Below, piece by piece: positions 14,020-36,286 of a DNA stretch of 64,000 nt. A model generated the notes under the pieces. It was not told where the DNA came from. It did not search any database and worked only from the letters and a program-made list of their open reading frames with translations. Position 1 is the first letter of the stretch. Every line of letters starts with the position of its first letter. Location of the stretch: NCBI GenBank assembly GCA_001792215.1, contig MGGC01000033.1, forward strand, positions 2,527 to 66,526, read 5' to 3'. The stretch comes from Candidatus Woesebacteria bacterium RIFCSPHIGHO2_01_FULL_38_10 (GTDB lineage: Bacteria; Patescibacteriota; Microgenomatia; UBA8517). Both the position numbers and the translations under genes were made by a program.

Positions 14020-14412
14020 CTAATATTCTTGTTCTTCTCCTTTTACAGCTTCCTCGCGGGTTTTGTGAACAGTTTTGTCTGGATGGTTTGGCGGGGAGTA
14101 AATTGTGTAAAGTTTTAGCTCTTTATCGGCAGATGTATTGATAATATTATGTTCACTCCCGGCCGGAACGATAATTGCAAAACCATCCCCTGCCTCTGAC
14201 ACCTCTTTGTCAATTATTACTTTTGCCAGTCCTGCCTCGATTCTGAAAAATTGATCTACATTGGGGTGAACTTCCGCTCCAATCTCCTCACCCGGTTTTA
14301 GACTCATAACAACCAGTTGTAAATATTTACCCGTAAAAAGGACTTTTCTAAAATTACTGTTTCCTAAAGTCGTTTTTTCTATACCATCAATATATCCCTT
14401 CATAATTTTCAC
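14020..14412 (-). CDS. Cupin-domain protein.
   Basis: 130 aa with a cupin-like pattern of His/Glu-containing beta-strands (GAEVHPNVDQFFRIEAG...PAGSEHNI). Confidence 0.55.
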   Translation of the reverse strand: MKIMKGYIDGIEKTTLGNSNFRKVLFTGKYLQLVVMSLKPGEEIGAEVHPNVDQFFRIEAGLAKVIIDKEVSEAGDGFAIIVPAGSEHNIINTSADKELKLYTIYSPPNHPDKTVHKTREEAVKGEEQEY

Positions 14413-14418
14413 CTCCCA

Positions 14419-15078: not shown

Positions 15079-15120
15079 TGCAATAACCGGCTTTAATACA
15101 TTATTCTAAATCTAAATCAA

Positions 15121-16332: not shown

Positions 16333-16337
16333 TTTTT

Positions 16338-17693
16338 TTAGAGGCTTCTTAAAATTCCCCTGGCAGCCATAATTCCAGTAGCTGCGGCTCCTGTTATTGT
16401 TCCTGAAAGACCAGAAGCGTCGCCAGCGACATAGACGTTTTTCAGAGCCGTTTGCATATCGTAAGTGGTTAAAACAAACGACGAGCGGAATTTCACTTCA
16501 GGAGCATACAAAAGCGTTGATCCTGAGTTAACTCCGGGCATAACTACATCCAACTTTTCCAGACCTTCAATAATATTTGTCACCAACCGATGAGGTAAAG
16601 CCATTGAAATATCTCCTGGTGTAACTTTATTGGAGGGCAAGGATGCTCTTACTATTGACTTTGAAAGTCTTGACGGTGTACTTCGACGGCCTCTTCGTAA
16701 ATCAGTTAATCTTTGAATAATTGGCTTGCCACCTCCAATAGTTGACGCCAAACGAGCGATTGATTCTGCGTAAGCAATTGAATTTTCAACAGGTTCGGTT
16801 AAATTGACTTCACAAACAAAGGCAAAATTAGAATTTTCAGATTCATGGTTTGAGGTTGAATGACCATTAACACAAACATAGTCACCGTACTCTTCAATGG
16901 TCACCATACCGTTCGGACAAGAACAAAAAGTACGCATGATATCATCGTATGTTTTGGTCCTAACCTTAAGAACAATTTCGTATAAGCTATCAGCATACTT
17001 TCGCATAACTGATTTGGGAAACTCCACCCTGACCCCCACTTCAACCATCCCATATTGATATCTAATGCCAACCCTGTCAGCTAAATCTTGAAGCCATTTA
17101 GCCCCGATCCTTCCGGGAACAAGAAGAATCTTTTTGGCAAAGTATTTATTCTCCTTTTCATCGATAACACCTAAACACTTTTGATCCTTAATAATTAAAT
17201 CAACAATTTTGGTGTCCTCAATTAAATTTATCCCGTTTGTCAGCAGATAATTCTCAATAACTTTAATTATTTTTCTCAATCTATCCGTTCCAACATGCTG
17301 AGCACGACGAACAATAAGCTCAATATCATTTTTCTGGGCTTCTTCTACCAGCGCACTAACCTCATCGATATTCTTCGGATAATACTCACTGTCAACTCCA
17401 AAACCTGTAAACGCCTTATCAATTTCATCTAAAATTTTTTGGTAATTTTCCGGGTCTAGTAAATGAAACGTTCGCTCATGCGATAGTTTTGCAGTATAAA
17501 TAAGCTTCCCATCAGAGTAAGTGCCTGCCCCTCCGAATCCGCTCATTACCTCATTTTCTTTTCTTTTTTCCAACCTTGAACCCATGTCTATCAAAGCAGC
17601 ACTAAGCTTCCTTTTCGACTTGATAAACTCCAAACAAGCAAAAATTCCGGCAGGTCCGGCCCCCACAATAATGACGTCAAAACTTTTCTTCAT
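16338..17693 (-). CDS. FAD-dependent dehydrogenase (COG2509-like).
   Basis: 451 aa with an N-terminal dinucleotide-binding motif (DVIIVGAGPAGIFA) and GGAGTYSDGKL. Confidence 0.65.
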   Translation of the reverse strand: MKKSFDVIIVGAGPAGIFACLEFIKSKRKLSAALIDMGSRLEKRKENEVMSGFGGAGTYSDGKLIYTAKLSHERTFHLLDPENYQKILDEIDKAFTGFGVDSEYYPKNIDEVSALVEEAQKNDIELIVRRAQHVGTDRLRKIIKVIENYLLTNGINLIEDTKIVDLIIKDQKCLGVIDEKENKYFAKKILLVPGRIGAKWLQDLADRVGIRYQYGMVEVGVRVEFPKSVMRKYADSLYEIVLKVRTKTYDDIMRTFCSCPNGMVTIEEYGDYVCVNGHSTSNHESENSNFAFVCEVNLTEPVENSIAYAESIARLASTIGGGKPIIQRLTDLRRGRRSTPSRLSKSIVRASLPSNKVTPGDISMALPHRLVTNIIEGLEKLDVVMPGVNSGSTLLYAPEVKFRSSFVLTTYDMQTALKNVYVAGDASGLSGTITGAAATGIMAARGILRSL

Positions 17694-19698: not shown

Positions 19699-19772
19699 TG
19701 CCCGGTCGGCTAAAGGTAGGCCAGATGGCTCTGGACCATCTAATCCACGTTCGAATCGTGGCTGGGCAGCCA
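19699..19772 (+). tRNA. tRNA-Gln, anticodon CTG, with an encoded CCA end.
   Basis: Manual cloverleaf. Acceptor TGCCCGG/CTGGGCA (U1-A72, one G-T wobble), D stem GGCT/GGCC, anticodon stem GATGG/CCATC with loop CTCTGGA (anticodon CTG), T arm CCACG-TTCGAAT-CGTGG, discriminator G73, then CCA. U1-A72 and G73 are known tRNA-Gln identity features. Confidence 0.85.
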
Positions 19773-21344
19773 AGTAGGACGAGAGGGTCGCAAAGACCCC
19801 TTTTGGGTTGATTTATCGGGCAATTCGTTAGGTTCGAAAATCTTCGCTCCATTTTTTGCCAAATTAGCCACTTTCGAACCGTTAGTCTCAAGCACTGCAT
19901 TGTGTATCAGTTTGAAGGCTTTGGAATACTCGTAAGCCAGAACTCCTTGGGTTAGGGTCATGTTAGTAAATACCAGATTGATAAGTCGTCTTTGTTCTTC
20001 CAAAAGGTGGCATTCTTTGGCTCGCAGGTAGATTTCTTTGGCTCTCTGGGAGAGTTCATAAAGGTTAATCCCCAAATCAAAGTGGTTATTCTTGGCTTTG
20101 GTATGTTTCTCAATCGCTGCCACAATGTCTGCCTTCTCTTGGGTATATTGCCTGAATTTCTGGTCATAAAAGGCTTTGGTGATCTTTTCATCCAGTTTGT
20201 CGTCATACAGGCGGTCTAAGCGCTTCTCAACCTGCGCCAGGCGGATTTGTAGTTCTTTGAGGCTGCTGGTTTCGTATTCAGTGGCATCCTGATGGCTTTC
20301 TTTGAGAGCCTTTTTAAGCCATTCGGCAATATGGCTGTTTTTTAACTGTAGTCCTTCAAAGCCTGTTAATAGCTGGTTCTCAATCACATCCTCTCTTGTC
20401 CATTTCTTCTGGGAGCAGTTGCGGTAGTGATTACAATGTCCATAGATAATGTTCTTGTGAATTTCCCAGGTGACCGTGCCTTTACACTCGGCGCATTTGA
20501 GTAATTGCTTAAAGAGAAACATATGTCTATTTATTTTAGGTGTATTTTTACCAGCCAGCACTAACTGTATCTTATCAAAAATCTCCTGACTTATTAAAGG
20601 CTCATGTTTGCCCTGATAAATCTCTCCGTTCCACCTGATCTTACCGATGTAAAACGGGTCTTTGAGAAGTTGATGGACACGGCTTTTGTAGATTCTGCCT
20701 CCTGTTGACGAGCGAAGTCCCGCCTCAAACATTAAATCAGCCAGTTTTTTGACCGAGCAGTCTCCTTCTGAATACTGTTCAAGGAATCTGCTTATAAGAG
20801 GAGCGGTGATTTCATCCTGGACATGGGTTTTATGTCCACGCTCACCAACGGTTTTATATCCTGGCAGTGGTCGGCAAGGTAACCATCCCTGTGACAGCTT
20901 CTCCTTTTGCCCCTTCTTTACTTCCTCGGATAAGTTATCAATGTAGTTTTTGGCAAAGATAATGCGCACACCCCAATTGAGTTTGTCTTGGGAGCGGGAG
21001 TTTTTGTGGAGGATAAGGGAATCTTTGACCAGATGGACTTGGCGTTCTTCGTCCTCCTCCAGCCATTCGTCGATCATCACCGCATCTTTAAAGTTTCTGG
21101 TTAAGCGGTCAACCTTCTCGCAAATGATAATTTTAATGTTGTTTTTCTTAACATACTCCGTCATGGATGAGAAGATCTCTCGTTGTTTCCTCCCGCTTGC
21201 CGATTCAGAGATGGAGAAGATTTTAGTCACTCCAAAGACCAGCTTCTCGGCGTAGCCCTTGAGTAGCTTCTCCTGGGCTGGCAGTGAGTAGCCTGTTTCT
21301 TCTTGTTCTCGACTTGATACTCGGCAGAGCAGGACAGCTTTCAT
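19740..21344 (-). CDS. Large serine recombinase (integrase).
   Basis: 534 aa. N-terminal resolvase/invertase catalytic domain with the Ser nucleophile (LLCRVSSREQEETGYSLPAQ), a recombinase domain, a zinc ribbon (CAECKGTV...CNHYRNC) and a coiled-coil. Its last 30 nt overlap the 3' half of tRNA-Gln on the opposite strand. Confidence 0.9.
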   Translation of the reverse strand: MKAVLLCRVSSREQEETGYSLPAQEKLLKGYAEKLVFGVTKIFSISESASGRKQREIFSSMTEYVKKNNIKIIICEKVDRLTRNFKDAVMIDEWLEEDEERQVHLVKDSLILHKNSRSQDKLNWGVRIIFAKNYIDNLSEEVKKGQKEKLSQGWLPCRPLPGYKTVGERGHKTHVQDEITAPLISRFLEQYSEGDCSVKKLADLMFEAGLRSSTGGRIYKSRVHQLLKDPFYIGKIRWNGEIYQGKHEPLISQEIFDKIQLVLAGKNTPKINRHMFLFKQLLKCAECKGTVTWEIHKNIIYGHCNHYRNCSQKKWTREDVIENQLLTGFEGLQLKNSHIAEWLKKALKESHQDATEYETSSLKELQIRLAQVEKRLDRLYDDKLDEKITKAFYDQKFRQYTQEKADIVAAIEKHTKAKNNHFDLGINLYELSQRAKEIYLRAKECHLLEEQRRLINLVFTNMTLTQGVLAYEYSKAFKLIHNAVLETNGSKVANLAKNGAKIFEPNELPDKSTQKGSLRPSRPTWLPSHDSNVD

Positions 21345-21390
21345 AGGTTTTTGTTGCTAACACAACACATAAATGAAACTTCAAGTAATA

Positions 21391-21993
21391 TCAACTTGAA
21401 CTATCATCTTTGTTGTCCTCTAACTGTTTTTTATTAAATTCCATTTCTAACTTTGTTATTTCCTTTGACAATTTTTCCTCTTCTGGGGTAAGGGGTTTTT
21501 GCTCTGCTTCGTCAATGCCTCCTACTATCTGATGTTTGCCGATTGATTCTCCAAATTCTGTCCTGTGCATTTCCCATAATGCTTTGACTTCCTGGACAGT
21601 TGCTGGCTCGCCTGCCTGCATTTGCTTTTTTAATGCCTGCAGTTTACTCCAGAATGCTTCCGTGATCAGATATGCTCTTTTCTGCCTGATTTGAGTTGAC
21701 TTCTTTTTCAAGCTCTCCAAGTCTTCTGTTAACTTCTTATCTGCCCGTTTAATCCACTGGTATTTAACCGACCAGCGTTCAATCGTCCTTTCTGAGGGTA
21801 AATTCCCAAGTTTAGTGCCAAAAATCACCGACAACTCTCCTACAGGATTCCGACATATTTGCTGCCATGCTTGGATCAGCTTGGAAACACTTCCTACTTC
21901 GCAATAAAGGAGGAATGCAGTATATTGACTTTCTGTCTCTCCAGGCATCTTTGAAGTTATTAGTTTTTCTGGTTGGTCACTTATTTTGTTCAT
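21391..21993 (-). CDS. Hypothetical protein (200 aa) in the recombinase operon.
   Basis: ORF closely packed with the neighbouring minus-strand genes. No motif recognised. Confidence 0.5.
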   Translation of the reverse strand: MNKISDQPEKLITSKMPGETESQYTAFLLYCEVGSVSKLIQAWQQICRNPVGELSVIFGTKLGNLPSERTIERWSVKYQWIKRADKKLTEDLESLKKKSTQIRQKRAYLITEAFWSKLQALKKQMQAGEPATVQEVKALWEMHRTEFGESIGKHQIVGGIDEAEQKPLTPEEEKLSKEITKLEMEFNKKQLEDNKDDSSS

Positions 21994-22204
21994 GTTTTTT
22001 TATCCTCCTGTAAAATATCTGGTCAATCTTATTAGCTGCCCTAATTCGTTCTCCCATAGGCAGCGATTCGTCGTCGGCTTTATTAAGATGTCTTTCAAAA
22101 ACTGCATAACTTCTTGGATTCCAAGAGCTATAAATTCCTACTCTCAATAAAAGAGATCGAGCTTGTTTTCTTTCTAACTTTGTTAACAATTCTCGATGTT
22201 TCAT
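21977..22204 (-). CDS. Hypothetical small protein (75 aa).
   Basis: ORF overlapping its neighbours by a few nucleotides, a typical operon arrangement. Confidence 0.4.
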   Translation of the reverse strand: MKHRELLTKLERKQARSLLLRVGIYSSWNPRSYAVFERHLNKADDESLPMGERIRAANKIDQIFYRRIKKHEQNK

Positions 22205-22560
22205 GGTTGTTTTGTTTTTGAAACTTGTTTATTAAAAATCTTGTCTACTTTCTCCCTAAATTCCTGATACTTTTCTGGCGATACTGGTTCATATGGCGCT
22301 TCGGTTGCTCTTCCTGGAAGTGTCTTAGAATCTTTAAGAAATCTTCTCTCTCGATAAAAATCAGTAATATAAGGAATGGCAATCGTAAATGTTTGAAACA
22401 CAATTGCCCCACGGTCACCCCTTGCCATTGCTTCCTGAACTAACCTGGCTTGATTTTTCGACAGCTGATACTCCCTCTTTGAAACCGTGATAACTGTCCA
22501 AAGCTCCTCAAAATCATCGTCATTTAATGTGCCTGGCGTCAATTCCTCTTTTGCTGACAT
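22201..22560 (-). CDS. Hypothetical protein (119 aa).
   Basis: ORF showing translational coupling (overlapping start/stop). Confidence 0.45.
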   Translation of the reverse strand: MSAKEELTPGTLNDDDFEELWTVITVSKREYQLSKNQARLVQEAMARGDRGAIVFQTFTIAIPYITDFYRERRFLKDSKTLPGRATEAPYEPVSPEKYQEFREKVDKIFNKQVSKTKQP

Positions 22561-23242
22561 GTTCGCTCGCCTCCTTTCTGATCTGTATTGCGTCTCGTTT
22601 TACAAAATTCCATAGGGTTGCCAACCAATTTTTTCGAACCTTACCAGTTGATTCGTGCCAATTCACCATGTCGTCATATTTGCTCATAACAAAGGCAAGC
22701 GAAACCTGATAACGCTGCGCTGTATCCTGGAACTCAGCTTCGCCAAGGCTGGTAATGTCAGAATACTTTCCTTTAAGAGGAACTAAAACTTTCTCTTTAT
22801 TTATTTCTCTTTCAGTATCTGAAGAAATCTCTGAAGTAGTCTCTGGGATAGATTGTTGGTTTTCTTCAAATAAGTTTGTGGAATTTCCACAAACAAGTTT
22901 GCTGATATTCCCCAGATTGAGTTTGAAATGCCGTTTTGCAGGTATACCTTTTCGTTTAACTTCAACGAGTTTTAGATTTTTAATTTTCTGAATTGCCCCA
23001 TCCTGTTCATACCTTGAAAGAGCAGTTTCTTCCTCAATCTCGTCGATAGTTTTATAGATCCACTCTGGGTTTTGACCTTTTCCCCACCAGTATAAAAGTT
23101 GTGATAACAACAATCCTGCCTTTACCGATCCTATTGCTTTTGCTAATAAAGGATTGAAGGCTATGGGTTTGATACTTAGAACTTCCAACAATTTCTTGTT
23201 GTAGTTCGGACTACTGGTTTTATGTGTTTGGTTATTTTCCAT
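22520..23242 (-). CDS. Hypothetical protein with an N-terminal winged-helix region reminiscent of plasmid/phage replication initiator or replisome-organiser proteins.
   Basis: 240 aa. N-terminal segment LLSQLLYWWGKG...IDEIEEETALSRYEQDGAIQKIKNLKLVEV resembles RepA/DnaD-type wHTH domains. This is a weak call by inspection only. Confidence 0.35.
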   Translation of the reverse strand: MENNQTHKTSSPNYNKKLLEVLSIKPIAFNPLLAKAIGSVKAGLLLSQLLYWWGKGQNPEWIYKTIDEIEEETALSRYEQDGAIQKIKNLKLVEVKRKGIPAKRHFKLNLGNISKLVCGNSTNLFEENQQSIPETTSEISSDTEREINKEKVLVPLKGKYSDITSLGEAEFQDTAQRYQVSLAFVMSKYDDMVNWHESTGKVRKNWLATLWNFVKRDAIQIRKEASEHVSKRGIDARHIK

Positions 23243-23411
23243 ACGGTTTACTTTTATTTAGGCAACTTGTTTTCTTCTCTATCTGAGCCAAAGTTTCAAA
23301 ATATCCTAAAAGCGCAACACCCATCTTTGTAACCTCTTGCATGGTTAAATTGAGGCGAAAATCCTCCTCAAGTATTTTTTTCAGTTCCAGTAATAAAGAT
23401 TGGCTGATCAT
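23235..23411 (-). CDS. Candidate small ORF (58 aa, below the ORF-track cutoff).
   Basis: Minus-strand ATG at 23411. Translates MISQSLLLELKKILEEDFRLNLTMQEVTKMGVALLGYFETLAQIEKK... and overlaps the start of the 22520..23242 gene by 8 nt. Confidence 0.2.
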
Positions 23412-23418
23412 AAGTTTG

Positions 23419-23730
23419 CTACAATTTCTGTTGCCACAGCTTTTCTTTCAAACTTTTGATAACGGCAACAGCTTTCCTAAAATCGACCATTAAATCGGGG
23501 GAATTTTCAGGGGAGAAGTTGAATTGTTGAAGGAGTTCTTTTCTCTGGGGAAAATCTCTGAAGATAAAAACAAACTGCTTGGAATTGTTCTCTGATTTCT
23601 TGATGCCTATAATCTGCCCACCCTTGAGGATCAAAAAGACCGAGGCATAAAAATTGACCGATAAGTAATTTTGGTTTATATTTGCATCAGACATAGGCCG
23701 TTGTTCGCAGCCCATAAAAAAGGACTGCAT
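23419..23730 (-). CDS. Hypothetical protein (103 aa), first gene of the minus-strand operon that ends with the recombinase.
   Basis: ORF directly upstream of the small ORF at 23411. Preceded by a repeat-rich non-coding region. Confidence 0.35.
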   Translation of the reverse strand: MQSFFMGCEQRPMSDANINQNYLSVNFYASVFLILKGGQIIGIKKSENNSKQFVFIFRDFPQRKELLQQFNFSPENSPDLMVDFRKAVAVIKSLKEKLWQQKL

Positions 23731-23758
23731 AACTCCAGCACACTGCCATTTTTTGCGT

Positions 23759-23892
23759 GTTGCTATCGTGCAGTCCGTTTATTGCGTCCGATTATGTCTG
23801 AAAAACCTCTTGCAGGAAAAAAGAGGATTTATGCTTGGCGTTTCGAAGATCCTGCGGCGTGTCCTTTATTGCGTAGTTGCTTTCGTGCGGTC
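23759..23892. repeat. Imperfect repeated motifs, candidate iterons or operators.
   Basis: ttgctatcgtgcagtcc at 23759-23775 matches ttgctttcgtgcggtct at 23876-23892. (g)tttattgcgt at 23776-23786 matches tttattgcgt at 23864-23873. Confidence 0.35.
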
Positions 23893-24246
23893 TTGCTGTC
23901 CGAATCCTATTGCTTCACTAATTCCGATTAAAGGCAGATGTGCCTTCTATAAGTAATTCTTACAGAATTTATTCTGATAGTCAAGGGGTAGTGAAAAACC
24001 CTCAAAATTGATAGAATATAAGCATAAAGCCTAAACCCTTTTGGGGCATGGCTAAGAAAACCGATCAAGGTAGGAAGCTCCTCGTCAGAGCACCTTGATC
24101 GGTCATATCCCGAAAGGGGTATGGGTAGTCGAAAGGCTATCGCTGGCGGGGAGCTTTTTGTTTGGATTTGACAATCTCCCCGACACGAAGTTAACATGCA
24201 ACACTCAAGGCTAAATTATCGGTTTATGTCTGAGGGGAGGTGAAAA

Positions 24247-25119
24247 ATGAAAATGACAAATAAAAATAAGTCTAATTTTCTACCTGTTATCCTTATCCTT
24301 GCCATAGTTGCCATTCTTGCTGTAGTTTTAGCCCCTCGCATGGTTAGTCAATCAAAGATTGCTCAGACCTTGCAATCCAGCGCCAAGGACAAAGAAGTTG
24401 CAGAGCTTCTGGCTACGATGAGCAAGAACCCAAATAAGGACTCACAGGAGTATAAAGAAGCTCGCCAGAAGTTTTGCCTTTTGACAGCCAGACCAGTAAA
24501 AGAGCGAGAAAAGGCAATCGCCAACATTCGTGAGTTTCTGGGTATACCTGACATCCCAGTGGAGTTCCTTTGTAGCAGGTTTGCGGGTAAGCCAGATGAC
24601 AGCGAGACTGATTATAATAACCCAACCAGCGAACACTATGAAGCTGCACGCCACGGTTTTGAAGTCGATCCAAAAACCAACTACCTCATTGGAGTTGGAG
24701 ACGCCGAGCGCAGGACAGGAAGAAAAGAGGACGGCACCCGCTGGTCTGAACCACTGCCAGAGTATGATTACTCAGGTCGTTACAGCACACCAGAGGAAGT
24801 TAGAAAGGTCGCTGAGAAGTTTCTAACGGATCACAAGGACATTTTTGGTATTGATCTTACTAAGATGACCTACAAGTATGAAGGCACAAAGCCAGGCAAC
24901 TTCTTCATGCACTGGGAAGACAAAAGTGTCTCGGTAACCAAAGAGCATGAAGTCTGTGGGGATGTAGATCAGAACCGAGAGGGCGCATACCAAGACGCCA
25001 AAGGAGTATGGTGCATTAAGCAGAAGTCGACGAATTATCAAAGGATCGACATCGCTATCACCAACGGCGGGCAGATCATTATCTATCGCAACAACATCAA
25101 CGATCTGGACAAACTCTAA
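24247..25119 (+). CDS. Hypothetical membrane-anchored or secreted protein. GC-richer than the host genes.
   Basis: 290 aa with an N-terminal hydrophobic segment (FLPVILILAIVAILAVVLAP) and no recognisable domain. Confidence 0.55.
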   Translation: MKMTNKNKSNFLPVILILAIVAILAVVLAPRMVSQSKIAQTLQSSAKDKEVAELLATMSKNPNKDSQEYKEARQKFCLLTARPVKEREKAIANIREFLGIPDIPVEFLCSRFAGKPDDSETDYNNPTSEHYEAARHGFEVDPKTNYLIGVGDAERRTGRKEDGTRWSEPLPEYDYSGRYSTPEEVRKVAEKFLTDHKDIFGIDLTKMTYKYEGTKPGNFFMHWEDKSVSVTKEHEVCGDVDQNREGAYQDAKGVWCIKQKSTNYQRIDIAITNGGQIIIYRNNINDLDKL

Positions 25120-25419: not shown

Positions 25420-28284
25420 TCATATTCTGTATTTTTGTTGCCGTTTCTTGAAGGCTTCCGATCCACCTTCTAACACCTTAACCGCTCTATTCCGAATCTT
25501 AGGTTCTTCTATTGAACCTGAGATATACGAGATTTTTCCGTTGCTATCTCTATTTGCCAAAATAACCTGTTCTGCATCGCTGTTTATAACAACATTGCCG
25601 TTATTGGATACCAAGATAATCTGTCGATACTTTTTAGCTTCTCTTATAGAACCAATAAGCTCGTCCATAATAAATTCGTTATCCAGATGATCATCGTGTG
25701 AGTCGATAATGATAGGTTTGTCTCCTTCAGCTAAATAAATCTTAATAAGAACCGTAGCTTTTTGCCCCAATGAAAGTTTATTAACGCTCGTATTTTTGTA
25801 TTTAACAACGGGGATAACTGTAAGGTAGCTGTCATATAAGAATTTATAGAAATCACCAACACTTATCACACTTGAAGTTTTTATTTTACCTTTCAAGTCA
25901 TTACTCAAGTGCTCAAGCTCATCAACTAAAACATTCACCTTAGTTTCATCGCCAGCTGCAACTGCCTTATAGAATCCTACCAAACCCTTAAACACCCAAG
26001 TATCCCCATCTTCTGGTCTAACCATAACCTTCCTATTGTCGACTACATCCTCTGCATTTTTTAGTAATTGTTTAGAATTAAAATTAACTTCTGCAACAAA
26101 ATCAAGGTCAGAAAGCACCTGTGCCTTGTCTACAGAAAATAACGAGATAATCTCATCGTATTTTTTCTTCAACTCAAGAAATGCAGTAACCATTTGAGTA
26201 AACAGCTCTTTCCTTTCTTTGATCTCAGATGCAAGCTCTTTCTTCTTTTTCTTTAAGTTTTTATTTTCCTCCTCAGCTTTATTTAGAGCAATTTCCGTTT
26301 CCCTCTTTTTATCAAGTAGTGATGTGTGACTTCGTATTCCTGCTTCGAACTGATCAATATCTTTTTGAGCTTTTCCAATGTTCTCAATTGCCTTATTTAT
26401 CTCTTGCTCGATATAATCTAATTTCTCCTGCAATTTGTCTTTATCTGCGTATGCTAAATCAGGGAAGGATTCTGGGACTTTTAACTTCTTAAGCAATTGA
26501 TTGATTGAAGAAATGTAAGAGTTAAATGTTGGAAACTCTTGGTCAATAAAAGCAATCGCCTGTGTTAATTCCTCCTTTAACTTAATGAGCAGGTCTCTCC
26601 TGTTTTTTAAGTTTGCTATGGCTTCTTGCTTTCCTTTTGCGATTTTAACCTTTTTGCTATTCAGACTTTTCTCAAGTTCTGCAATTCTCTGGTTTATGTC
26701 TTTCAATCCTACCTTGAGCTGTTTTTCTTTAACCTTTGCTTTTTCGACAATTTCTGTTTTTGTCGCTTGCTCTGTTGACTCGATTGACTGTGACTTCTGT
26801 AGAATTTTCTGTTTAAGGTCACCAATCTTTGTCTGGATTTTTGAAAATTCGTATTTTTCTACTGAATTTTGTATCTTTGGACTTTGGAAAATTAAGTCAT
26901 TAACATACTCGTCAAGATCCGATTTCTCTCCAATATACTGTTCTAATTCCCCCTGGGCGATATAAGCAATTTGCCCCTCTTCAAAAAACGATAGGTCTGT
27001 AGCTTTTTTTGAAAATGTTGTCTTATCCTTGAAAGTTAACTCAGTTTTTAAGTCAGGGTTCTGATCCGAAATTCTCTTAATAAAAGAGTTCTCGTCGCCA
27101 GAATTAACTCTATCGATGTAACAGTTAGCAATCTGGTCAACAAAGGCTGTCTTACCAGTCCCTTTTCCTCCTGCTACTGCGACTAAGCCTGGATTAAGAT
27201 TTATATCTGTCTTGGCAATAGACAATTCGTCGTTAATTTTCGACTCTGTAATTTTTATCTGGTCGATTGTTAAATTACTTCTGGGTGGTATTGGGCAACC
27301 TGGTTGGATTGAAACTCTATCTTCTGGTTCATATAAAAGCTGTTTTAATCCTTCAAATGTTGGGTCTGCTTCTACCCAACAAAATCTCAAATCACAGGCA
27401 TCAGTCTTTTCACCACACTTATGTGTAGATACACCCCTTTTTGCACACGGGACTCCCACTTCATCAATGCAATGACTGTCTGATCCGTGTATACAAGATT
27501 TCAGAGTCTTAAACTCCTCTTTAAACTTCTTTTCACCTTCTTTATAGGGTTGTTTTCCAAGACACCACTGTATAGTTTTAGGATTAGAGGAAAAAACCAT
27601 ATCCGATTTCTGAAGAAGTCCTTTTCTCATAAGATGATCTTGACCATTCCAGTCAATCAAATTCGACAGTTCTTCGGGAAGAACAAGAAGATATTTTCCC
27701 TTGAAACGGCTATCTCCACTTAATAGCTCTGTTATTTCTTCATGGCTAACAACCGCATTCGATGCACCCAATTCCAGAGGGTTTCTTCCTTTGAAGAGTG
27801 CATGTTGAGATATAAGTTGTTTTCCTAAAACAGTTAAGTTGGATAGTTTTAATTTGCGACTCTCATCCTTGCTCTGGGGGTTACCTTCGTAATAAAAATG
27901 GAGATCATGTAGGAAATGTTCTTCTATATCTTGAGGAGATACTTCATCAGAAAAAATTACATGGTAATTTAGTCTTCGTGGATCAGTTCCGTCTTTTCTG
28001 CTTGAAATGACGCTGTTTAATCGAAACTCAATGTTCGGCAGAACCAACGAGATGTTTTTCAGTCTTCCTGCTTTTCTAAACTCCAGAATCTTCTTATATC
28101 CTTCTATTGAGAAGTAATCCGTTATTCCTACAGCAGCCAGATCAAGCCCCTCAAGTTTTTTAAGAAACTTATTCCAATCTGGCTCACCATTTGCCAGCTT
28201 AGGATATTTATTAGCGAGTATTGAAAGAGGACTGTGAACATGCAAATCCCACTTTCGCCATTCAGAACCTCTTGGATATTCCAT
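25420..28284 (-). CDS. PHP-domain phosphoesterase fused to an ABC/SMC-like ATPase with long coiled-coils, resembling the single-gene Ppl (PHP-like) anti-phage architecture.
   Basis: 954 aa. N-terminal PHP motifs (WDLHVHSP...AAVGITDY...). Walker A VAVAGGKGTGKTAFVDQ. Extensive coiled-coil. C-terminal ABC signature-like LSLGQK followed by Walker B PIIIDSHDDHLD. Confidence 0.7.
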   Translation of the reverse strand: MEYPRGSEWRKWDLHVHSPLSILANKYPKLANGEPDWNKFLKKLEGLDLAAVGITDYFSIEGYKKILEFRKAGRLKNISLVLPNIEFRLNSVISSRKDGTDPRRLNYHVIFSDEVSPQDIEEHFLHDLHFYYEGNPQSKDESRKLKLSNLTVLGKQLISQHALFKGRNPLELGASNAVVSHEEITELLSGDSRFKGKYLLVLPEELSNLIDWNGQDHLMRKGLLQKSDMVFSSNPKTIQWCLGKQPYKEGEKKFKEEFKTLKSCIHGSDSHCIDEVGVPCAKRGVSTHKCGEKTDACDLRFCWVEADPTFEGLKQLLYEPEDRVSIQPGCPIPPRSNLTIDQIKITESKINDELSIAKTDINLNPGLVAVAGGKGTGKTAFVDQIANCYIDRVNSGDENSFIKRISDQNPDLKTELTFKDKTTFSKKATDLSFFEEGQIAYIAQGELEQYIGEKSDLDEYVNDLIFQSPKIQNSVEKYEFSKIQTKIGDLKQKILQKSQSIESTEQATKTEIVEKAKVKEKQLKVGLKDINQRIAELEKSLNSKKVKIAKGKQEAIANLKNRRDLLIKLKEELTQAIAFIDQEFPTFNSYISSINQLLKKLKVPESFPDLAYADKDKLQEKLDYIEQEINKAIENIGKAQKDIDQFEAGIRSHTSLLDKKRETEIALNKAEEENKNLKKKKKELASEIKERKELFTQMVTAFLELKKKYDEIISLFSVDKAQVLSDLDFVAEVNFNSKQLLKNAEDVVDNRKVMVRPEDGDTWVFKGLVGFYKAVAAGDETKVNVLVDELEHLSNDLKGKIKTSSVISVGDFYKFLYDSYLTVIPVVKYKNTSVNKLSLGQKATVLIKIYLAEGDKPIIIDSHDDHLDNEFIMDELIGSIREAKKYRQIILVSNNGNVVINSDAEQVILANRDSNGKISYISGSIEEPKIRNRAVKVLEGGSEAFKKRQQKYRI

Positions 28285-28286
28285 AT

Positions 28287-30608
28287 TTATTTTTTATCAA
28301 TCTTATAAGCGCTGCTGATGATAGCGTCAAAACTGTTAATTCTGCTTACTGCTGTATGGGGCAGGAGTTTATAAATCCACTGCTTGTTGGTTGCTCCAGA
28401 GGCGATTTTACACCATTCTTCAGCTTGTTTTGCCTTCTCCAAGACCTCTGGGTCTTTTTTGTCGAGTTTACTTTTATCTTTAACCTCCACCAAGTAATTA
28501 GCGTCTTTTCTTTCAACAATAAAATCGGGGTTGTAGTTACCGTAAATATACTTAATCGGTAGTTGCCCGTTCCTAAGTCTCAACCAGCTCACTACAGATT
28601 TATCTCTTTCCAGAGAGTCCGCTAACAGTTTCTCCTGGGTTGAATCAAAAACATAGGCTGGGTAAACACTTTTGTCATATCCCTTGATGATGTTGCCTCT
28701 GGATTCTGCTTCGCTCACTTCGTCTTTATCCAATGGCACAGCCGAGACCTTTACGACTTTCAGATAAGGTTCAAACGGCAACTGCTCATCAAGAACTCCA
28801 AACTTGATTCTTGTTTGTTCTTGGAGCTTCTCCTGAAGCTGAGGCAGAATATCATTTAAGATTGTCTGTTCATGCAGTTTAACCAGTTTCGATAGCTCTT
28901 TTCCTGTTACCTGGAGTTGATCAAGGTAGTGTTTTACGATCTTTTGTAAGATTGCCTTGAAAGAGATGTCAAACTCGGACATCTCCAAGATAATCAACCT
29001 AACGATGCGATTAACAGGATTGATTTCTTCTTTGATCTCGACTTCTCCAGCGTCTTCTGTTTGTCTGGAAACAATGTCTGTCTTAACCATTCTTGGCTTA
29101 ATCTTCTTTAATTCCTCCAAACGCAACTTAATCGGGAAGAACTCCAGTTTATTGCTGGAATAAACTTTCGCTTCGACAGCAGGTATCTTGATCCAAAGTT
29201 TTTTATTACCTGTTGGTTTGATCTCAACAGTCTTTAATTCTTCTTTCTTTTCAGCCTTTTTAACCCCAATCCCCTCAGCCACTTCATGGGCAACCGCTAT
29301 CACTCTGGCAAAGTTGTCATGGGAGATAATGTCGAGCGAGTCAAGTTCCTCAACGCCTGAAAGCTCGCCAAACGGTAGCCTAAGCCCTCTGCCGATAGTT
29401 TGCTCGATCAAAGTCTTACTGATTGAAGCCCTGAAGGGGATAATGGTGTAGACATTTTTGACATCCCAGCCTTCTTTGAGCTTGTCAACATGAACAACAA
29501 TCTCGTTTTTGTTAACTGGATAAGGTTCTTCCAAACGGAGAAGCTGATTGATTGAATCTACCTCGCTCTCGCTGGTTACCAATAGAGTTTTGTCCTTGTA
29601 ATAGCCATCAAAGAAACTGTCGCTTTCGATTAGAGCTTTAACATCTTTGGCGTGCTGAATGTTCTTGGTCGTTAGGAGAGTAACTGGTAAAACAAACGGC
29701 AATTTATTGTTTTTGCAGTATGCCTCGATAAGTGCTTTCTTCTCTCGGTGTCTCCTGATACCATCCTCAAGTTTCACTAACTCAAGGTCACCTTTGTAGG
29801 TGTAGTCATCACTTCTGGCTATAACATACGGAATCTTGATATAACCACCCTTAGCGCCATTGCCGTTGTGTAAGCTCGCCAAAGCCTTCTTAGAATCGTT
29901 TATGGCGTCTCCAAGGGTGTAAGAATAAACCACATTGTCGCTAATGGGTGTTGCCGTAAATTCCAGTCCCAACTCTGGTTTGAGATGGTTGATCGCTTTG
30001 ATCGACTTTACTCCCCGATACCTGTGACTCTCGTCCATTAAAATAACCAGATCCTTTTGCTGGAGAAGCTCGGCAAAGCTCGACCCCAGTGTTTCTTGAT
30101 AGCGGTGGAATCTAAACTCGACATCGGTTCTTTCGTTGAAAATCTTCTGGATATTAAAAACATAAATGTTAACCGCATCAAAAAGCTGATTGCCAAAGTT
30201 AGCATAGGTGTAATTTTCTCCTGTAATCAAATTAAACATTGGGAAATCAGTCAAACCATCCAGGACATATTTTTTGCTTGAAGGGGTAAAGTTATCGATA
30301 GTTTTGGTATAAATGGTTTCTCCTGGAGTTAGAATGAAAAAGTCTTTTAGCCCCTTCGTGTAGTAAAGATAAGCGATCATGGCTGCCATCAGTCTTGTTT
30401 TCCCCACACCTGTTGCCAGAGCAAAAGTAAAGGAAGGAAACTCTGTATCAAACTTCACATTTCCCACCAACCTCGCCTCAATATCTTCCAATTTGTCCCT
30501 GTCTAACTTAACCCCAGAAAGGATTGCGTCTAATTTGATCAATGAAAGCTCTTGTGGCTTTCTCAGGCTTAATTCTTTGGTTAATTTTTCTGTTATGTTC
30601 ATGCTCAT
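28287..30608 (-). CDS. res: Type III restriction enzyme, Res subunit (SF2 helicase-like ATPase plus C-terminal PD-ExK endonuclease).
   Basis: 773 aa. Walker A ALATGVGKTRLMAAM, DEAH-like MDESHRY, C-terminal D...LVEVKDK nuclease motif. Translationally coupled to the Mod gene. Confidence 0.85.
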   Translation of the reverse strand: MSMNITEKLTKELSLRKPQELSLIKLDAILSGVKLDRDKLEDIEARLVGNVKFDTEFPSFTFALATGVGKTRLMAAMIAYLYYTKGLKDFFILTPGETIYTKTIDNFTPSSKKYVLDGLTDFPMFNLITGENYTYANFGNQLFDAVNIYVFNIQKIFNERTDVEFRFHRYQETLGSSFAELLQQKDLVILMDESHRYRGVKSIKAINHLKPELGLEFTATPISDNVVYSYTLGDAINDSKKALASLHNGNGAKGGYIKIPYVIARSDDYTYKGDLELVKLEDGIRRHREKKALIEAYCKNNKLPFVLPVTLLTTKNIQHAKDVKALIESDSFFDGYYKDKTLLVTSESEVDSINQLLRLEEPYPVNKNEIVVHVDKLKEGWDVKNVYTIIPFRASISKTLIEQTIGRGLRLPFGELSGVEELDSLDIISHDNFARVIAVAHEVAEGIGVKKAEKKEELKTVEIKPTGNKKLWIKIPAVEAKVYSSNKLEFFPIKLRLEELKKIKPRMVKTDIVSRQTEDAGEVEIKEEINPVNRIVRLIILEMSEFDISFKAILQKIVKHYLDQLQVTGKELSKLVKLHEQTILNDILPQLQEKLQEQTRIKFGVLDEQLPFEPYLKVVKVSAVPLDKDEVSEAESRGNIIKGYDKSVYPAYVFDSTQEKLLADSLERDKSVVSWLRLRNGQLPIKYIYGNYNPDFIVERKDANYLVEVKDKSKLDKKDPEVLEKAKQAEEWCKIASGATNKQWIYKLLPHTAVSRINSFDAIISSAYKIDKK

Positions 30609-32272
30609 ACTTTGAATTTCTTGAGTAAAACATCAGGAATTTTCCTGATTTCTACATTTTCTGGTAATTTAATTTTACTCGATATGGTTTTGGCATAAAC
30701 GATCAGATAATCGGCTGCATCGCCAACTTCTCGCAAGATAGCACTTACATAATCTTGGTTGAGATATTGCTCGGTTACATGAGCGATAGTCCTTCCTGAA
30801 ACGCCGTGTAGGGCATTATTTGGATTAAGGAGTTTGAATCCTTCGACCTTCAAAACTGCCCGAATAAGAGTGCCGTTATATACTTTTGGATTTAGAACTG
30901 TCAATCTCAAGTCGTCATCTGCTACAAAAAGACTGTCCCCCAATTCAAAATACTTAAATCCACTCCCGCCCCTCCAATTTATTTCCTTACTGATTCCAGT
31001 CTGATCCTTACCCTCGACAACCTCTTTTAATCGCTTTAAGCAGTGCGTTTTAACTTGATCGCTAAACTCAACCATGATCCACTTTCTTCCCATCTTGTGT
31101 GCAACTGCCCCTGTAGTTCCCGAACCCGCAAAACTGTCAAGAATCCAATCGCTCTCTTTTGATCCTATCTCTAAGATTCTCTTTATCAACTTTTCAGGTT
31201 TCTTGCCCTTGGGAAATTCCACATTCCCTTCTTTTGCTATTCCTTGCCAACCGATGTCGTCCCAGAAGTTCGTTAGAGGTTCAACAATGCCCTTCTCGCC
31301 ATTTACTGTCCTAACTTTATCCTCTAAAAAGAGGATTCTATTTCCTTTATAGAAAAACATATCACTAAAATCTTCTCGTTTAAGTAAGTAGACTTTTTCA
31401 CCATCACTTTTTGATTTATCGATAAGTTCTCTTGCTGCCTGACTCACTCCCTTATAGTTTGGTAGTGCAAAACGGATCACCCCTTCTGGATTACCCACCG
31501 CAAACTTAACAACCTCTTTTTCAAATACTTTACTGGACAGTTTTTTCCTTGCCTCTGATGCAGAAGAGTATCCCAGCTCAGTTGCAACTTTATCCGCTAA
31601 ATTGATAAATCGCCATTTTTGATAATCCTCTGAGTAGTTCTCGATGAACTTGCTGTATTGCCTATCATATTTTTCTCTTAACACATGTTGTTGTTTGTAA
31701 CGCCATTCAGTTTTGTCTTTGCAGTAAACGATGAGATATTCGGTCACATTTACAGGAGCTGGGTTTATTGCCTTATGTCCTGTAGCAGCACTCCTTTTTA
31801 TGCTTATATTAACTACACGATTCTTACGACCAAATATCTCATCAAGGAGAACGCTCAAATAGGCAACCTCCGTATCATCAATTTCAACAAAAATTACTCC
31901 ATCTTTTTTTAATAAGTCGTGAAGAAGTTTTAGTCTGTCCCTCATCATCGTGAGCCAGATAGAATGCTCTAAGCCATCATCGTAGTATTCAAACGCAGAA
32001 CCAGTATTGAATGGAGGATCAATATAAATCAGCTTAATTTTGTTTCTAAAATCTTGCAGCAATGCCTTAAGCGCTAATAGATTATCGCCCTTTATGAGCA
32101 TGTTTTCAGCATCTCTATCACCGTAAGCTGCCTTTTCGAGAAATATACGAGGTTCAGATACTCTGGGGTCTTTTTTGTCTACCCAAAGATATTTTTTCTC
32201 TTTGAGATCATAGTAAAGACTTTTGTCTTTGTGATACCAGGTTAATTCTAATTTTTTATCGTTTTTAGTCAT
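30605..32272 (-). CDS. mod: Type III restriction-modification Mod subunit (N6-adenine DNA methyltransferase, beta-class motif order).
   Basis: 555 aa. Motif IV IYIDPPFNTG precedes motif I DSFAGSGTTGAVA. Overlaps the Res start by 4 nt. Confidence 0.85.
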   Translation of the reverse strand: MTKNDKKLELTWYHKDKSLYYDLKEKKYLWVDKKDPRVSEPRIFLEKAAYGDRDAENMLIKGDNLLALKALLQDFRNKIKLIYIDPPFNTGSAFEYYDDGLEHSIWLTMMRDRLKLLHDLLKKDGVIFVEIDDTEVAYLSVLLDEIFGRKNRVVNISIKRSAATGHKAINPAPVNVTEYLIVYCKDKTEWRYKQQHVLREKYDRQYSKFIENYSEDYQKWRFINLADKVATELGYSSASEARKKLSSKVFEKEVVKFAVGNPEGVIRFALPNYKGVSQAARELIDKSKSDGEKVYLLKREDFSDMFFYKGNRILFLEDKVRTVNGEKGIVEPLTNFWDDIGWQGIAKEGNVEFPKGKKPEKLIKRILEIGSKESDWILDSFAGSGTTGAVAHKMGRKWIMVEFSDQVKTHCLKRLKEVVEGKDQTGISKEINWRGGSGFKYFELGDSLFVADDDLRLTVLNPKVYNGTLIRAVLKVEGFKLLNPNNALHGVSGRTIAHVTEQYLNQDYVSAILREVGDAADYLIVYAKTISSKIKLPENVEIRKIPDVLLKKFKV

Positions 32273-32274: not shown

Positions 32275-32937
32275 TTATAAATTCTCTGCTAAGAATCTCT
32301 GCACGCCTTCAAGCATAGCCTTAACATCTTCTGTTTTGTAATCCTCAAACTTACCATGATCAGCGCTGTCTCTTATTGCCTTCCACGCCTGAATTTGTTT
32401 TTGAAGCAAGCGACTATAAACTTCTTTATCTGCGAGCTTTGTATTGAGTGATCCTATGTCATCGCCCGATTTGACATCGACAGTATGTTTCTGTGCAATT
32501 TGTCTCAGTCCATTTTCTAATACTGCTCCCACCAAAGAAGCAGCAGAGTCTTTGTAGCTGTTATCCAAGAGATGCTGAGCCATTTCGATAAAATCTGTGA
32601 AGATTTCAGCGCTTACTAAGTTTCTTACTCTTGTTAAATAACCAAGTTCCAAATCTTCTTTTAATGCCGTGAGGATGCCAATACCGTGGTCTACATCGCT
32701 TGGGTGGGCTGTTTTTACCCCGTCAACAAAGTTTTTGTAGTAAGGGCTGTCTTCTCCACAAACCATAGATATAAAGTTTTGTGAGTTATTCTTCCATTCG
32801 TGAAATAGAGGGCTATTGACCGTGGAGGGTGCAATAACATGCTCCGAACTGTTATTTCTTTTTGTTGCTGCGACTTTTTGCCCTTTTTCGAGCAGTTGTC
32901 CAACCCGCTCAATTAGCTTATTTGTTGTTGTGTTCAT
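32275..32937 (-). CDS. Hypothetical protein with an Rx4H motif in a predicted helical C-terminal region, a possible HEPN-like (DUF4145-type) partner of the R-M genes.
   Basis: 220 aa. AIRDSADHGKF matches the HEPN Rx4-6H signature. Sits between the HTH gene and Mod. Call made by motif inspection only. Confidence 0.4.
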   Translation of the reverse strand: MNTTTNKLIERVGQLLEKGQKVAATKRNNSSEHVIAPSTVNSPLFHEWKNNSQNFISMVCGEDSPYYKNFVDGVKTAHPSDVDHGIGILTALKEDLELGYLTRVRNLVSAEIFTDFIEMAQHLLDNSYKDSAASLVGAVLENGLRQIAQKHTVDVKSGDDIGSLNTKLADKEVYSRLLQKQIQAWKAIRDSADHGKFEDYKTEDVKAMLEGVQRFLAENL

Positions 32938-33125
32938 ATTTTTATTTTCATTAGCTTTTCTAAATCTCCAGGTCTGTATCTTCGATCTCCTCGCTTGTTG
33001 AGTCTTATAGCCTTCAGTTTACCGCTTTTATCCCATCGTCTAAGTGTCTCCACATGCACATTTAACACCTCAGCAGCTTGTTTAATGGTTAGTAGTTTTG
33101 GTAACTCGTCTTTATTCTTCGGCAT
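32934..33125 (-). CDS. Excisionase-family / MerR-like helix-turn-helix DNA-binding protein (copy 1), first gene of the defence operon.
   Basis: 63 aa. LTIKQAAEVLNVHVETLRRWDKSGKLKAIR is the classic Xis/AlpA-type HTH. Overlaps the next gene by 4 nt. Confidence 0.75.
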   Translation of the reverse strand: MPKNKDELPKLLTIKQAAEVLNVHVETLRRWDKSGKLKAIRLNKRGDRRYRPGDLEKLMKIKI

Positions 33126-33173
33126 AACTCAACTTAATTATACAAAAATTAAAGGAAAAAGGGTATACTAACC
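33126..33173 (-). promoter_or_regulatory. Putative promoter for HTH copy 1 (TATAAT-like -10 element); conserved with the region upstream of HTH copy 2.
   Basis: Sense-strand sequence upstream of the ATG reads ...TTTTTGTATAATTAAGTTGAGTT-ATG. The same GTATAATTA(A/T)GTTGAG core occurs upstream of the 36221 start codon. Confidence 0.35.
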
Positions 33174-35563: not shown

Positions 35564-36031
35564 TCATCTGGGTTGATATCTTGCCTTAGGATCATCACCG
35601 TCAAACCTATTACTTGCTTCAAGTTTACAGGCAGACGCCAGGATTTCACTTGCGGTCGAAGTGCTGGTGTCAGCGGGAAGAATACAATGGAGTTGAATAC
35701 CTGTTTTACCCTCATATGTTGTGAGTTCAAAACCTGGGAAAATTGTTAATTCATAACCTTCTTGTTCCAGTTTTTTTGCTTCTGTGCAAAGGCTTTCCAG
35801 CACAGAGTCTTTGGGGTCATTAACAAAGTTGTGATCTGTAAGCGCAATAGCATCAAGTTTCTGCCTCCTGCAAAAAGCAACAAATTCTTTCGCAAAATCT
35901 TCTTTTGTATAGTCTTTACTTATTTTCTTTCCCTTCCAACGAGCATCAAGGCAAGTATGACAATGTAAGTCGCACTTAAAGAATTTAGCCTCTTTAAGCT
36001 GATATTTATCTGTGTTTGTATAGTCAGTCAT
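35564..36031 (-). pseudogene. Truncated PHP-domain gene, paralogous to the N-terminus of the 954-aa PHP-ATPase; the ATPase part is missing.
   Basis: 155 aa. KCDLHCHTCLD...AIALTDHNF...ELTIFPGFEL...GIQLHCILPADTS parallels WDLHVHSP...AVGITDY...ISLVLPNIEF...LNYHVIFSDEVS of the 25420..28284 protein. It is followed by about 380 bp with no ORF. Confidence 0.55.
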
Positions 36032-36221
36032 ATTTATTTTTCTTTAATAGATTCTCCAAATCTCTTGGGTCATAACGCCTATCGCCACGCTCGTTGACCC
36101 GAATGGCTTTCAGTTTTCCGCTTTTACCCCACCGTCTCAATGTCTCCACATGGACATTCAGCACTTCAGCTGCTTGGCGGATAGTTAACAGTTTTGGTAA
36201 AGTCGTCTTATTCTTCGGCAT
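36024..36221 (-). CDS. Excisionase-family / MerR-like HTH protein (copy 2), a near-identical paralog of 32934..33125.
   Basis: 65 aa. MPKNKTTLPKLLTIRQAAEVLNVHVETLRRWGKSGKLKAIRVNERGDRRY versus MPKNKDELPKLLTIKQAAEVLNVHVETLRRWDKSGKLKAIRLNKRGDRRY. The upstream promoter-like sequence is also conserved. Confidence 0.75.
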   Translation of the reverse strand: MPKNKTTLPKLLTIRQAAEVLNVHVETLRRWGKSGKLKAIRVNERGDRRYDPRDLENLLKKNKYD

Positions 36222-36286
36222 ACCTCAACATAATTATACAATTTTTGACCAAAAAGAGTTATACTTGTTTTGGTAAAATAAAAAGA
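36222..36286 (-). promoter_or_regulatory. Putative promoter for HTH copy 2, conserved with 33126..33173.
   Basis: Sense strand reads ...TTGGTCAAAAATTGTATAATTATGTTGAGGT-ATG. The TATAAT box sits at the same distance from the start codon as in copy 1. Confidence 0.35.

Follow-up and report, generated by a model that had tools for sequence, protein, structure and literature searches.

The Ppl (PplA) anti-phage system was reportedly described by Gao et al. in 2020. It consists of a single gene whose product combines PHP and ATPase domains, and it is counteracted by gp130 of phage Bas63 (PMC11482910). According to two citing papers that summarise its mechanism (PMC12904381 and PMC13434339, on Xu et al., Mol Cell 2026), Ppl is a 3'-5' exonuclease on single-stranded DNA, is inhibited by nucleoside triphosphates (NTPs) bound at both the PHP and NTPase domains, and requires 3'-OH ends, which are made by phage homing endonucleases. 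The name TrlF, used by NCBI for a much broader family, comes from the temperature-restriction locus trlR-trlF-trlG of Photorhabdus laumondii, in which trlF is the gene annotated 'histidinol phosphatase' (Hapeshi et al., 2020, PMC7554251). This paper was the sole relevant one found in a literature search on 'TrlF', and it gives no biochemical function for the protein. Here, a gene of this family is described from a contig (MGGC01000033.1) of a Candidatus Woesebacteria groundwater bacterium with a very small genome, of which contig a stretch of 64,000 nucleotides (the window) was analysed; the gene occupies positions 25420-28284 on the minus strand. Its product is shown below to be a TrlF-family, Ppl-like protein in which a predicted PHP nuclease is fused to an SMC-like nucleotide-binding head. 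Probably, it is a single-polypeptide nuclease-ATPase carried as horizontally mobile defence cargo on a serine-recombinase element, and most likely it would act in defence as an NTP-gated nuclease directed at DNA ends.

The open reading frame (ORF) runs uninterrupted from ATG to stop and encodes 954 amino acids (aa). Its coordinates are exactly those of the preliminary description of this DNA, and the motifs singled out there are all found in the protein: the PHP motifs WDLHVHSP (aa 12-19) and GITDY (aa 53-57), the Walker A motif GGKGTGKT (aa 372-379), the ABC signature LSLGQK (aa 837-842), and the Walker B motif IIIDSHDD (aa 858-865). The ORF is not a chance one, because it matches the NCBIfam model NF045780, has a large set of homologues, and recurs in identical copies. 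More than 4,761 homologues were found at E <= 1e-5 in a database clustered at 90%, the matching 50%-identity clusters number 7,229 at E <= 1e-3 and 1,526 at E <= 1e-30, and identical copies are present on seven contigs from independent samples. The identical protein in GenBank is OGM18807.1, 'hypothetical protein A2686_02090', of a Candidatus Woesebacteria metagenome-assembled genome (GCA_001793025.1), so that the earlier remark on a host with a reduced genome was correct.

NF045780 ('TrlF family AAA-like ATPase') is a curated equivalog hidden Markov model (HMM) with a cutoff of 350 bits, and it matches aa 5-953 over profile positions 1-944 of 944 at 482.9 bits (E 3.2e-144). With the Ppl model NF042955, whose cutoff is 1000 bits, the 954-aa protein obtains 104.8 bits, mainly from aa 832-950, and with the Ppl model of PADLOC (PDLC02208) 83.9 bits. 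The reference Ppl used for comparison, WP_015059139.1 from an E. coli IncF plasmid, annotated by the Prokaryotic Genome Annotation Pipeline (PGAP), scores 1330 bits on NF042955 and, full length, 477 bits on NF045780; a TrlF from a P. syringae plasmid, which has a TrlG partner, scores 578 bits on the latter. Because Ppl and the 954-aa protein both pass NF045780 full length, Ppl is a clade nested in the broad TrlF family and the present protein belongs to a sister clade, about as far from the centre of the family as Ppl is. The claimed likeness to Ppl therefore stands at the level of the family and falls at the level of a Ppl equivalog. In pairwise comparisons, BLAST aligned the last ~115 aa with Ppl at 32% identity (E 2e-18), besides short patches near the Walker A and HxH motifs, and aligned the P. 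syringae TrlF over its full length at 22% identity. A hhalign comparison of the clade profile with Ppl recovered the C-terminal lobe alone (probability 99.1%), so that full-length kinship with Ppl rests on the NCBIfam HMM. Pfam gave a single sub-threshold SMC_N match on the full protein, and a sequence search of the PDB with the 954-aa protein, Ppl and the clade profile found no solved Ppl/TrlF structure, only Rad50/SMC N-lobes and coiled-coil noise. For genomic comparisons, one genome per species from 185,579 species was scanned with two peptide patterns; 201 relatives were confirmed and 79 loci (L numbers below) were retrieved.

The likeness to Ppl extends to the order of domains, a PHP domain followed by an ABC/SMC-like head interrupted by a helical insert, and to a series of motifs common to both: HxH, E, H, GSDxH, Walker A, signature, Walker B Asp, D-loop, and a C-terminal 'EGG..AF..R' tail. 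The N-terminal PHP-fold phosphoesterase/nuclease domain covers aa 1-335 (27280..28284, minus strand). In an alignment of 62 sequences of the clade (51-86% identity, from several phyla), D13, H15, H17, D56, E86, H108, D269 and H271 are invariant in 62/62, and H266 is kept in at least 90%. A superfamily alignment places H15, H17, E86, H108, D269 and H271 on the HxH, E, H and GSDAH motifs of Ppl; conservation of the metal-binding residues, a point on which the preliminary description called for a check, is thus confirmed. When a model of aa 1-335 was searched with Foldseek, the best nine matches were all PHP-fold enzymes (prob 1.00, E 2.3e-5 to 2.7e-3), headed by the BAD_1165 phosphoesterase (3o0f, 2.3e-5) and including RNase AM (9etk, 3.5e-5), Cv1693 and, from Pol III alpha and DnaE1, their PHP domains; PolC came at rank 12. 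In the full-length model, the same region has a predicted local distance difference test score (pLDDT) of ~80-95 on average, with short dips. The domain is accordingly modelled as a PHP fold with a metal site formed by an N-terminal HxH and a C-terminal DxH. Some TrlF homologues (L023, L046, L057, L066, L021, L063, L073) read 'WDLQVHT', in which Gln replaces the first His of HxH, and the metal site may be altered in these branches.

The remainder of the chain folds, in the full-length AlphaFold (AF2) model (pLDDT 85.5; predicted template modelling score, pTM, 0.66), into an ATPase head and a coiled-coil arm. The N-lobe (aa 336-474; 26863..27279, minus strand, as are the following parts) contains Walker A, G372-T379, and the Q-loop Q444; the antiparallel arm (aa 475-717; 26134..26862) turns at an apex near aa 601-614; and the C-lobe (aa 718-954; 25420..26133), the region of clearest likeness to Ppl in BLAST and hhalign, contains LSLGQK, Walker B IIID861, the D-loop HLD868 and the H-loop S893-N894-N895. 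The Walker A lobe and the Walker B/signature lobe are thus parted by a long antiparallel coiled coil, as in SMC/Rad50/RecN ATPases. G372, G375, G377-K378-T379, Q444, S838, G840-Q841-K842 and D861 are invariant in the 62 sequences. Foldseek matches of this model in the PDB are SMC-family heads bearing coiled coils: MukB (3.8e-9), JetC (4e-9), Smc (5.7e-9) and Rad50 (1.1e-8), then RecN, LmuB and RecF. Of the SMC/RecN/OLD-like head proposed earlier, the SMC-like character is therefore borne out by the model and by Foldseek, while the OLD-like character applies only in the sense of a generic ABC-type head, because a Toprim domain is absent: no Toprim/OLD match was obtained in Pfam, NCBIfam or PADLOC, and the chain terminates at the ATPase C-lobe. 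The coiled coil had also been estimated too long, at ~400 aa; the model gives ~245 aa (helices 475-717), with ~100 aa of further helices between it and the C-terminal ATPase lobe. No zinc hook (CxxC) or hinge is found at the apex, since its loop (601-614) is short and aa 389-954 contain no Cys.

JetC (Wadjet) and LmuB (Lamassu), which are among the top structural matches, likewise combine an SMC-like head with a coiled coil, and both act against foreign DNA together with a nuclease. That nuclease, however, is a subunit of its own (JetD, LmuA), and kleisin/KITE-type partners exist, whereas here the PHP domain is fused in cis and conserved partners are absent. PADLOC gave weak LmuB and JetC matches that are confined to the coiled coil and of low significance.

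In ABC ATPases, the residue that follows the Walker B Asp is usually the catalytic Glu, and Gln at this place is a classic hydrolysis-dead substitution; the His of the H-loop also aids hydrolysis. Neither the catalytic Glu nor the H-loop His is present in the 954-aa protein, which has S862 after D861 and N894 at the H-loop. Across the TrlF family at large the catalytic position is occupied by Gln: most members, including Ppl and the P. syringae TrlF, have a Walker B of the form 'hhhDQP[ED][ED]xLD' and an H-loop '[ST]HN', whereas a sub-clade that includes the present protein has 'IIIDSHD[DE]HLD' and 'SNN', with Ser at the catalytic position and Asn in place of the H-loop His. The DSH Walker B is found in 26/26 loci of this sub-clade, and SNN in all 25 whose C-terminus is present. 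The third hallmark is a Cys/His insert (CHCC) at aa 279-302 (27379..27450, minus strand), which follows the GSDSH of the PHP domain and is absent from Ppl and the P. syringae TrlF. Its residues C280, H288, C290 and C297 are invariant in the clade alignment and C302 is kept in at least 90%; the insert is a possible zinc site. The insert occurs in 24 of 80 sequences (the 79 loci and the 954-aa protein), 22 of these 24 being of the DSHDD clade, and 22/26 loci of that clade bear it. Set directly against Ppl, the protein thus has DSHDDHLD for DQPEDDLD at Walker B, SNN for SHS at the H-loop, TDY for SDH at PHP motif II, the additional insert, and 63 aa more in length; and while Ppl is carried by an enterobacterial IncF plasmid, the present gene stands in a restriction-modification (R-M) operon on a chromosome of the Candidate Phyla Radiation (CPR). 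Both are nevertheless accessory genes on mobile DNA that are capable of standing alone. Because of the Ser at the catalytic-Glu position and the Asn at the H-loop, the head of the sub-clade is more likely a nucleotide-binding sensor or dimerisation switch than a fast ATPase, a reading that fits the NTP inhibition reported for Ppl. In another group of homologues (L028, L029, L032, L038, L042, L044, L045), 'DQPE' is kept at Walker B while the H-loop is 'TNN', with His changed to Asn; because this intermediate group pairs the two, it suggests that the H-loop change arose before the DSHDD change. No description of the altered Walker B and H-loop, of the CHCC insert, or of a recurrent site at the 3' end of R-M operons was found in the literature search.

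The gene lies on an integrative element. One end of the element is marked at 19699..21344 by a tRNA-Gln gene (19699-19772, plus strand; ARAGORN), into which a large serine recombinase gene (19740-21344, minus strand; Pfam Resolvase, Recombinase and Zn_ribbon_recom) extends with its 3' end. The backbone that follows at 21391..23242, on the minus strand, holds a small-terminase-like gene (21391-21993), small ORFs and a replication-initiator O/DnaD-like gene (22520-23242), with matches to PHROG 6299 (5e-12) and PHROG 9773 (2.5e-26). The excisionase-like HTH leader described below is counted among the parts of the element as well. Backbone genes are shared at 38-64% identity with the TrlF loci L008 and L010, both of Microgenomates, whose cargo beside TrlF consists of methyltransferases and not of Type III R-M. 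A search for a second tRNA-Gln fragment or attachment (att) repeat that would mark the far end of the island found none; serine integrases leave no long repeat, and for this reason the right-hand boundary is undefined, at ~33.2 kb or beyond. Also encoded in the region 19699-25119 are a 290-aa protein whose N-terminus includes a hydrophobic segment and several small ORFs, and the layout of the region resembles that of a satellite or of an element like the phage-inducible chromosomal islands (PICI).

Outside this genome, the 79 loci come from many bacterial phyla, among them Patescibacteria, Acidobacteriota, Cyanobacteria and Bacteroidota, and from several archaea. Furthermore, tblastn matches were obtained on 1,141 of 72,556 plasmids, 825 of those conjugative. 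Only 7 of 50,697 phage records had a match and no member of the sub-clade was found in IMG/VR, and a phage-borne origin was rejected on these grounds. The TrlF gene is mobile accessory cargo; it is not an SMC protein core to the lineage, the contrary case raised in the preliminary description, because of its sparse distribution across phyla, its plasmid copies and its site in an integrative element. Two loci deserve separate mention. The closest homologue outside the species itself, at 85% identity, is on L007 (CAZOVJ010000002.1, labelled uncultured Gammaproteobacteria), where it is followed downstream by a serine recombinase gene and where the locus showed no Mod/Res homologue; this is either a recent transfer of the element between phyla or a mis-binned contig. 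L088, the Klebsiella pneumoniae conjugative IncFII plasmid NZ_CP024835.1, carries a solo TrlF-family gene (14175-16979) adjoining an 'Abi family protein', with an 'ATP-binding protein' and 'UvrD-helicase domain' pair ~5.5 kb upstream, past IS21 and IS66, an arrangement that resembles a small defence island on a plasmid.

At its site in the window, the gene is the last of five on the minus strand. Upstream of it lie, in order of transcription, an HTH_17/MerR-type (excisionase-like) leader gene of 63 aa (32934..33125; Pfam HTH_17, 3.7e-12; PHROG excisionase/transcriptional regulator, 2.2e-10), a gene for a HEPN-like protein of 220 aa, the first of the cargo (32275..32937; Pfam HEPN, E 3.6e-4, 21.1 bits against a cutoff of 22), the Type III methyltransferase Mod of 555 aa (30605..32272; Pfam N6_N4_Mtase, 6.4e-41; PADLOC MTase_III, 8e-129), and the Type III restriction subunit Res of 773 aa (28287..30608; Pfam ResIII, 4.9e-21, and RE_endonuc; PADLOC REase_III, 1.4e-87). 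The physical coupling to Type III R-M that had been noticed from the letters is thus correct, both R-M genes being recognised by Pfam and by PADLOC. A gap of 2 nt separates the stop of Res from the start of TrlF (junction sequence TAAATATG), and Mod and Res, like the leader and the HEPN-like gene, overlap by 4 nt; because every junction is either such an overlap or such a gap, all five genes are translationally coupled into a single string, and this packing strongly suggests that TrlF is co-transcribed with the R-M genes. Promoter and terminator scans over the string gave sites no more numerous than in shuffled sequence.

A similar arrangement recurs elsewhere. When operon-like neighbours were defined as genes on the same strand with a gap of <= 200 nt, 124 of them were found in the 79 loci, and in the Pfam tally R-M families lead: ResIII 9, N6_N4_Mtase 7, Methylase_S 7, Eco57I 7, N6_Mtase 6, SWI2_SNF2 6, EcoEI_R_C 4 and HSDR_N 3. 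R-M genes take up 11-13% of gene slots at positions -3 to +1 and 0-5% farther out, and 37 of 41 R-M neighbours are on the strand of TrlF. For example, in two Patescibacteria (L014:4213-12252 and L037:3150-11033) TrlF is inside a Type I operon, where the genes run hsdR-hsdM-trlF and then one more R-M gene, with overlapping junctions, and in a Saccharibacteria locus (L020) it follows Mod-Res, in the same order as here. The arrangement of L014 and L037 recalls that of PrrC inside a Type Ic locus. R-M genes within four genes of TrlF were about equally common in both motif clades (9/26 and 13/46 loci).

These neighbourhoods raise the alternative that TrlF is not autonomous but an accessory of R-M, either a post-restriction exonuclease acting on Res fragments in a repair-minimal host or a guard in the style of PrrC/RloC, silenced by R-M and firing upon its inhibition. 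The coupled junctions, the dominance of R-M of Types I, III and IIG among close neighbours, and the copies embedded in hsd operons or placed after Mod-Res all speak for it, and a precedent exists: PrrC, a nuclease fused to an ABC ATPase, is encoded within a Type Ic R-M locus, and the coiled coil of RloC is Rad50-like, so that both resemble the present protein in joining an ABC-type NTPase to a nuclease in or beside R-M operons. The likeness drawn here is one of architecture, and the effector of PrrC/RloC is a tRNA-cleaving domain, not a PHP domain. Moreover, an R-M gene is found within 4 genes, by BLAST clustering, in 22 of the 79 loci, and 57/79 have none. On plasmids the gene occurs alone, Ppl being one such case, and Ppl needs no second gene for defence (PMC11482910). 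The R-M types of the partners vary, which disfavours a specific protein-protein interface, and the idea that Type III R-M is the conserved, specific partner was rejected, since the type varies and most loci have none. An obligate role as R-M accessory is thus an unlikely reading.

Much less probable is a housekeeping role, in which the protein would serve DNA repair or chromosome maintenance as a fused counterpart of SbcCD/Mre11-Rad50 and replace repair genes missing from a reduced CPR genome. The parallel in architecture is real: like Mre11-Rad50/SbcCD, the protein joins a metal-dependent phosphoesterase nuclease to a Rad50-type ATPase with a coiled coil and is predicted to act at DNA ends, its structural matches include Rad50, RecN, RecF and SMC, and UniRef labels it 'ATPase involved in DNA repair'. 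However, the nuclease of Mre11 is calcineurin-like and not of PHP type, both activities are here in one chain, and the apex has neither zinc hook nor hinge. The gene is accessory and mobile instead of core: it is sparse and patchy (7 CPR genomes among the 79 loci), it is carried by an integrative element and by conjugative plasmids, the relatives nearest to it, 57-85% identical, come from unrelated phyla, and its neighbourhoods are not conserved save for R-M and mobile-element genes. Finally, a two-gene TrlF-TrlG module as in Photorhabdus, in which TrlF would depend on an AlbA_2/HATPase_c_4 partner, is suggested by the family name and by the P. syringae plasmid TrlF, which is overlapped downstream by an SLFN_AlbA_2 and HATPase_c_4 protein, but was rejected as extremely improbable, since no TrlG-like ORF adjoins the gene here and a TrlG homologue occurs in 1/79 loci and is not among the top neighbour families. 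With the Photorhabdus TrlF, the present protein has in common the family NF045780 and a small regulator upstream (trlR of 79 aa there, PMC7554251; HTH_17 of 63 aa here); it differs in the missing TrlG partner, in an identity of ~22% to a TrlG-linked TrlF, and in that the trl phenotype was mapped to trlG.

Some features of the cargo stand apart from these questions. The 220-aa HEPN-like protein has an Rx4H motif, 'RDSADH', near its C-terminus, and may be a HEPN RNase or an abortive-infection component. Two paralogous HTH_17/MerR-like leader genes (33125..32934 and 36221..36024), taken with the regions upstream of them, account for a diverged direct repeat of ~235 nt (32936-33169 and 36032-36265; 73-79% identity, spacing 3096 nt). 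Behind the second of these leaders comes a 155-aa ORF (35564-36031), whose match to PHP is below threshold (E 0.006), and the two leaders may be duplicated or exchangeable cassette leaders.

Returning to the mobile single-polypeptide defence nuclease, a mechanism can be proposed by analogy with Ppl. The SMC-like head would bind NTP and thereby keep the PHP nuclease off; an invading element would trigger it by exposing DNA ends or draining nucleotides; and the PHP domain would then degrade DNA from free 3' ends, halting replication of the invader. Defence against invading DNA is what we infer from family and context, and degradation would presumably start from free ends once nucleotide binding to the head is relieved. 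Because TrlF sits behind Res, cooperation with restriction is also suggested, for example by degradation of restriction fragments; but since most homologues stand alone, TrlF probably acts autonomously.

Several observations weigh against this proposal. The mechanism of Ppl is taken from the summaries in citing papers, and similarity to Ppl beyond the C-terminal ~115 aa is weak, BLAST giving short patches only. The changed Walker B and H-loop could mean a regulatory logic unlike that of Ppl. In the PHP domain, Tyr57 stands at motif II where Ppl has His. The Pfam PHP model PF02811 gave no match at E <= 1 for aa 1-335, so that the assignment rests on motifs and fold; the same model also fails or is marginal on Ppl and the P. 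syringae TrlF. Modelled alone, aa 1-335 reached a pLDDT of 66.9, and its TM-scores to the PHP-fold matches are 0.28-0.38 normalised by query and at most 0.51 normalised by target. The 79-locus sample is biased towards the branch of the 954-aa protein by the two peptide patterns with which it was collected. The 'enrichment' of R-M genes was stated without a formal genome-wide background rate, and its basis is therefore the decay with position, the bias in strand and the general knowledge that R-M genes are a small fraction of the genes in genomes. As to phenotypes, the literature search found no demonstrated defence phenotype for a TrlF-family member outside the Ppl clade, and the temperature-tolerant mutations of Photorhabdus were all in trlG and none in trlF (PMC7554251).

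On balance, the gene is a credible but largely expected defence gene. It is not a new kind of system, because under the current annotation rules of NCBI it would already be labelled 'TrlF family AAA-like ATPase', and because a mechanism has been published for the nearest relative that is characterised. The practical value of the finding is modest. Its meaning lies more in the family. Ppl is a small branch of the very large family that NCBI calls TrlF, with more than 7,000 clusters at 50% identity in bacteria and archaea, and the mechanism of Ppl has so far been given for one enterobacterial plasmid clade only. A well-populated sister clade has swapped the two residues most tied to hydrolysis in ABC ATPases and gained a probable zinc-binding insert, and TrlF-family members have repeatedly been wired into the 3' end of R-M operons. 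To our knowledge, very few immune systems have been characterised in ultra-small CPR genomes. The DSHDD/SNN/CHCC sub-clade therefore bears on whether NTP sensing without hydrolysis is a logic of the whole family, on cooperation between R-M and end-directed nucleases, and on defence in such genomes. In a bolder and rather doubtful version, the sub-clade would be a hydrolysis-impaired, nucleotide-sensing Ppl machine recruited as the terminal gene of Type I, III and IIG R-M operons, where it would serve restriction as a dedicated exonuclease or guard, loading on ends made by Res or firing when R-M is blocked. If this were true, classical R-M and an SMC-like nuclease would be functionally coupled in a way not described previously, and the coupling would supply repair-poor CPR bacteria with post-restriction degradation, the role played elsewhere by RecBCD.

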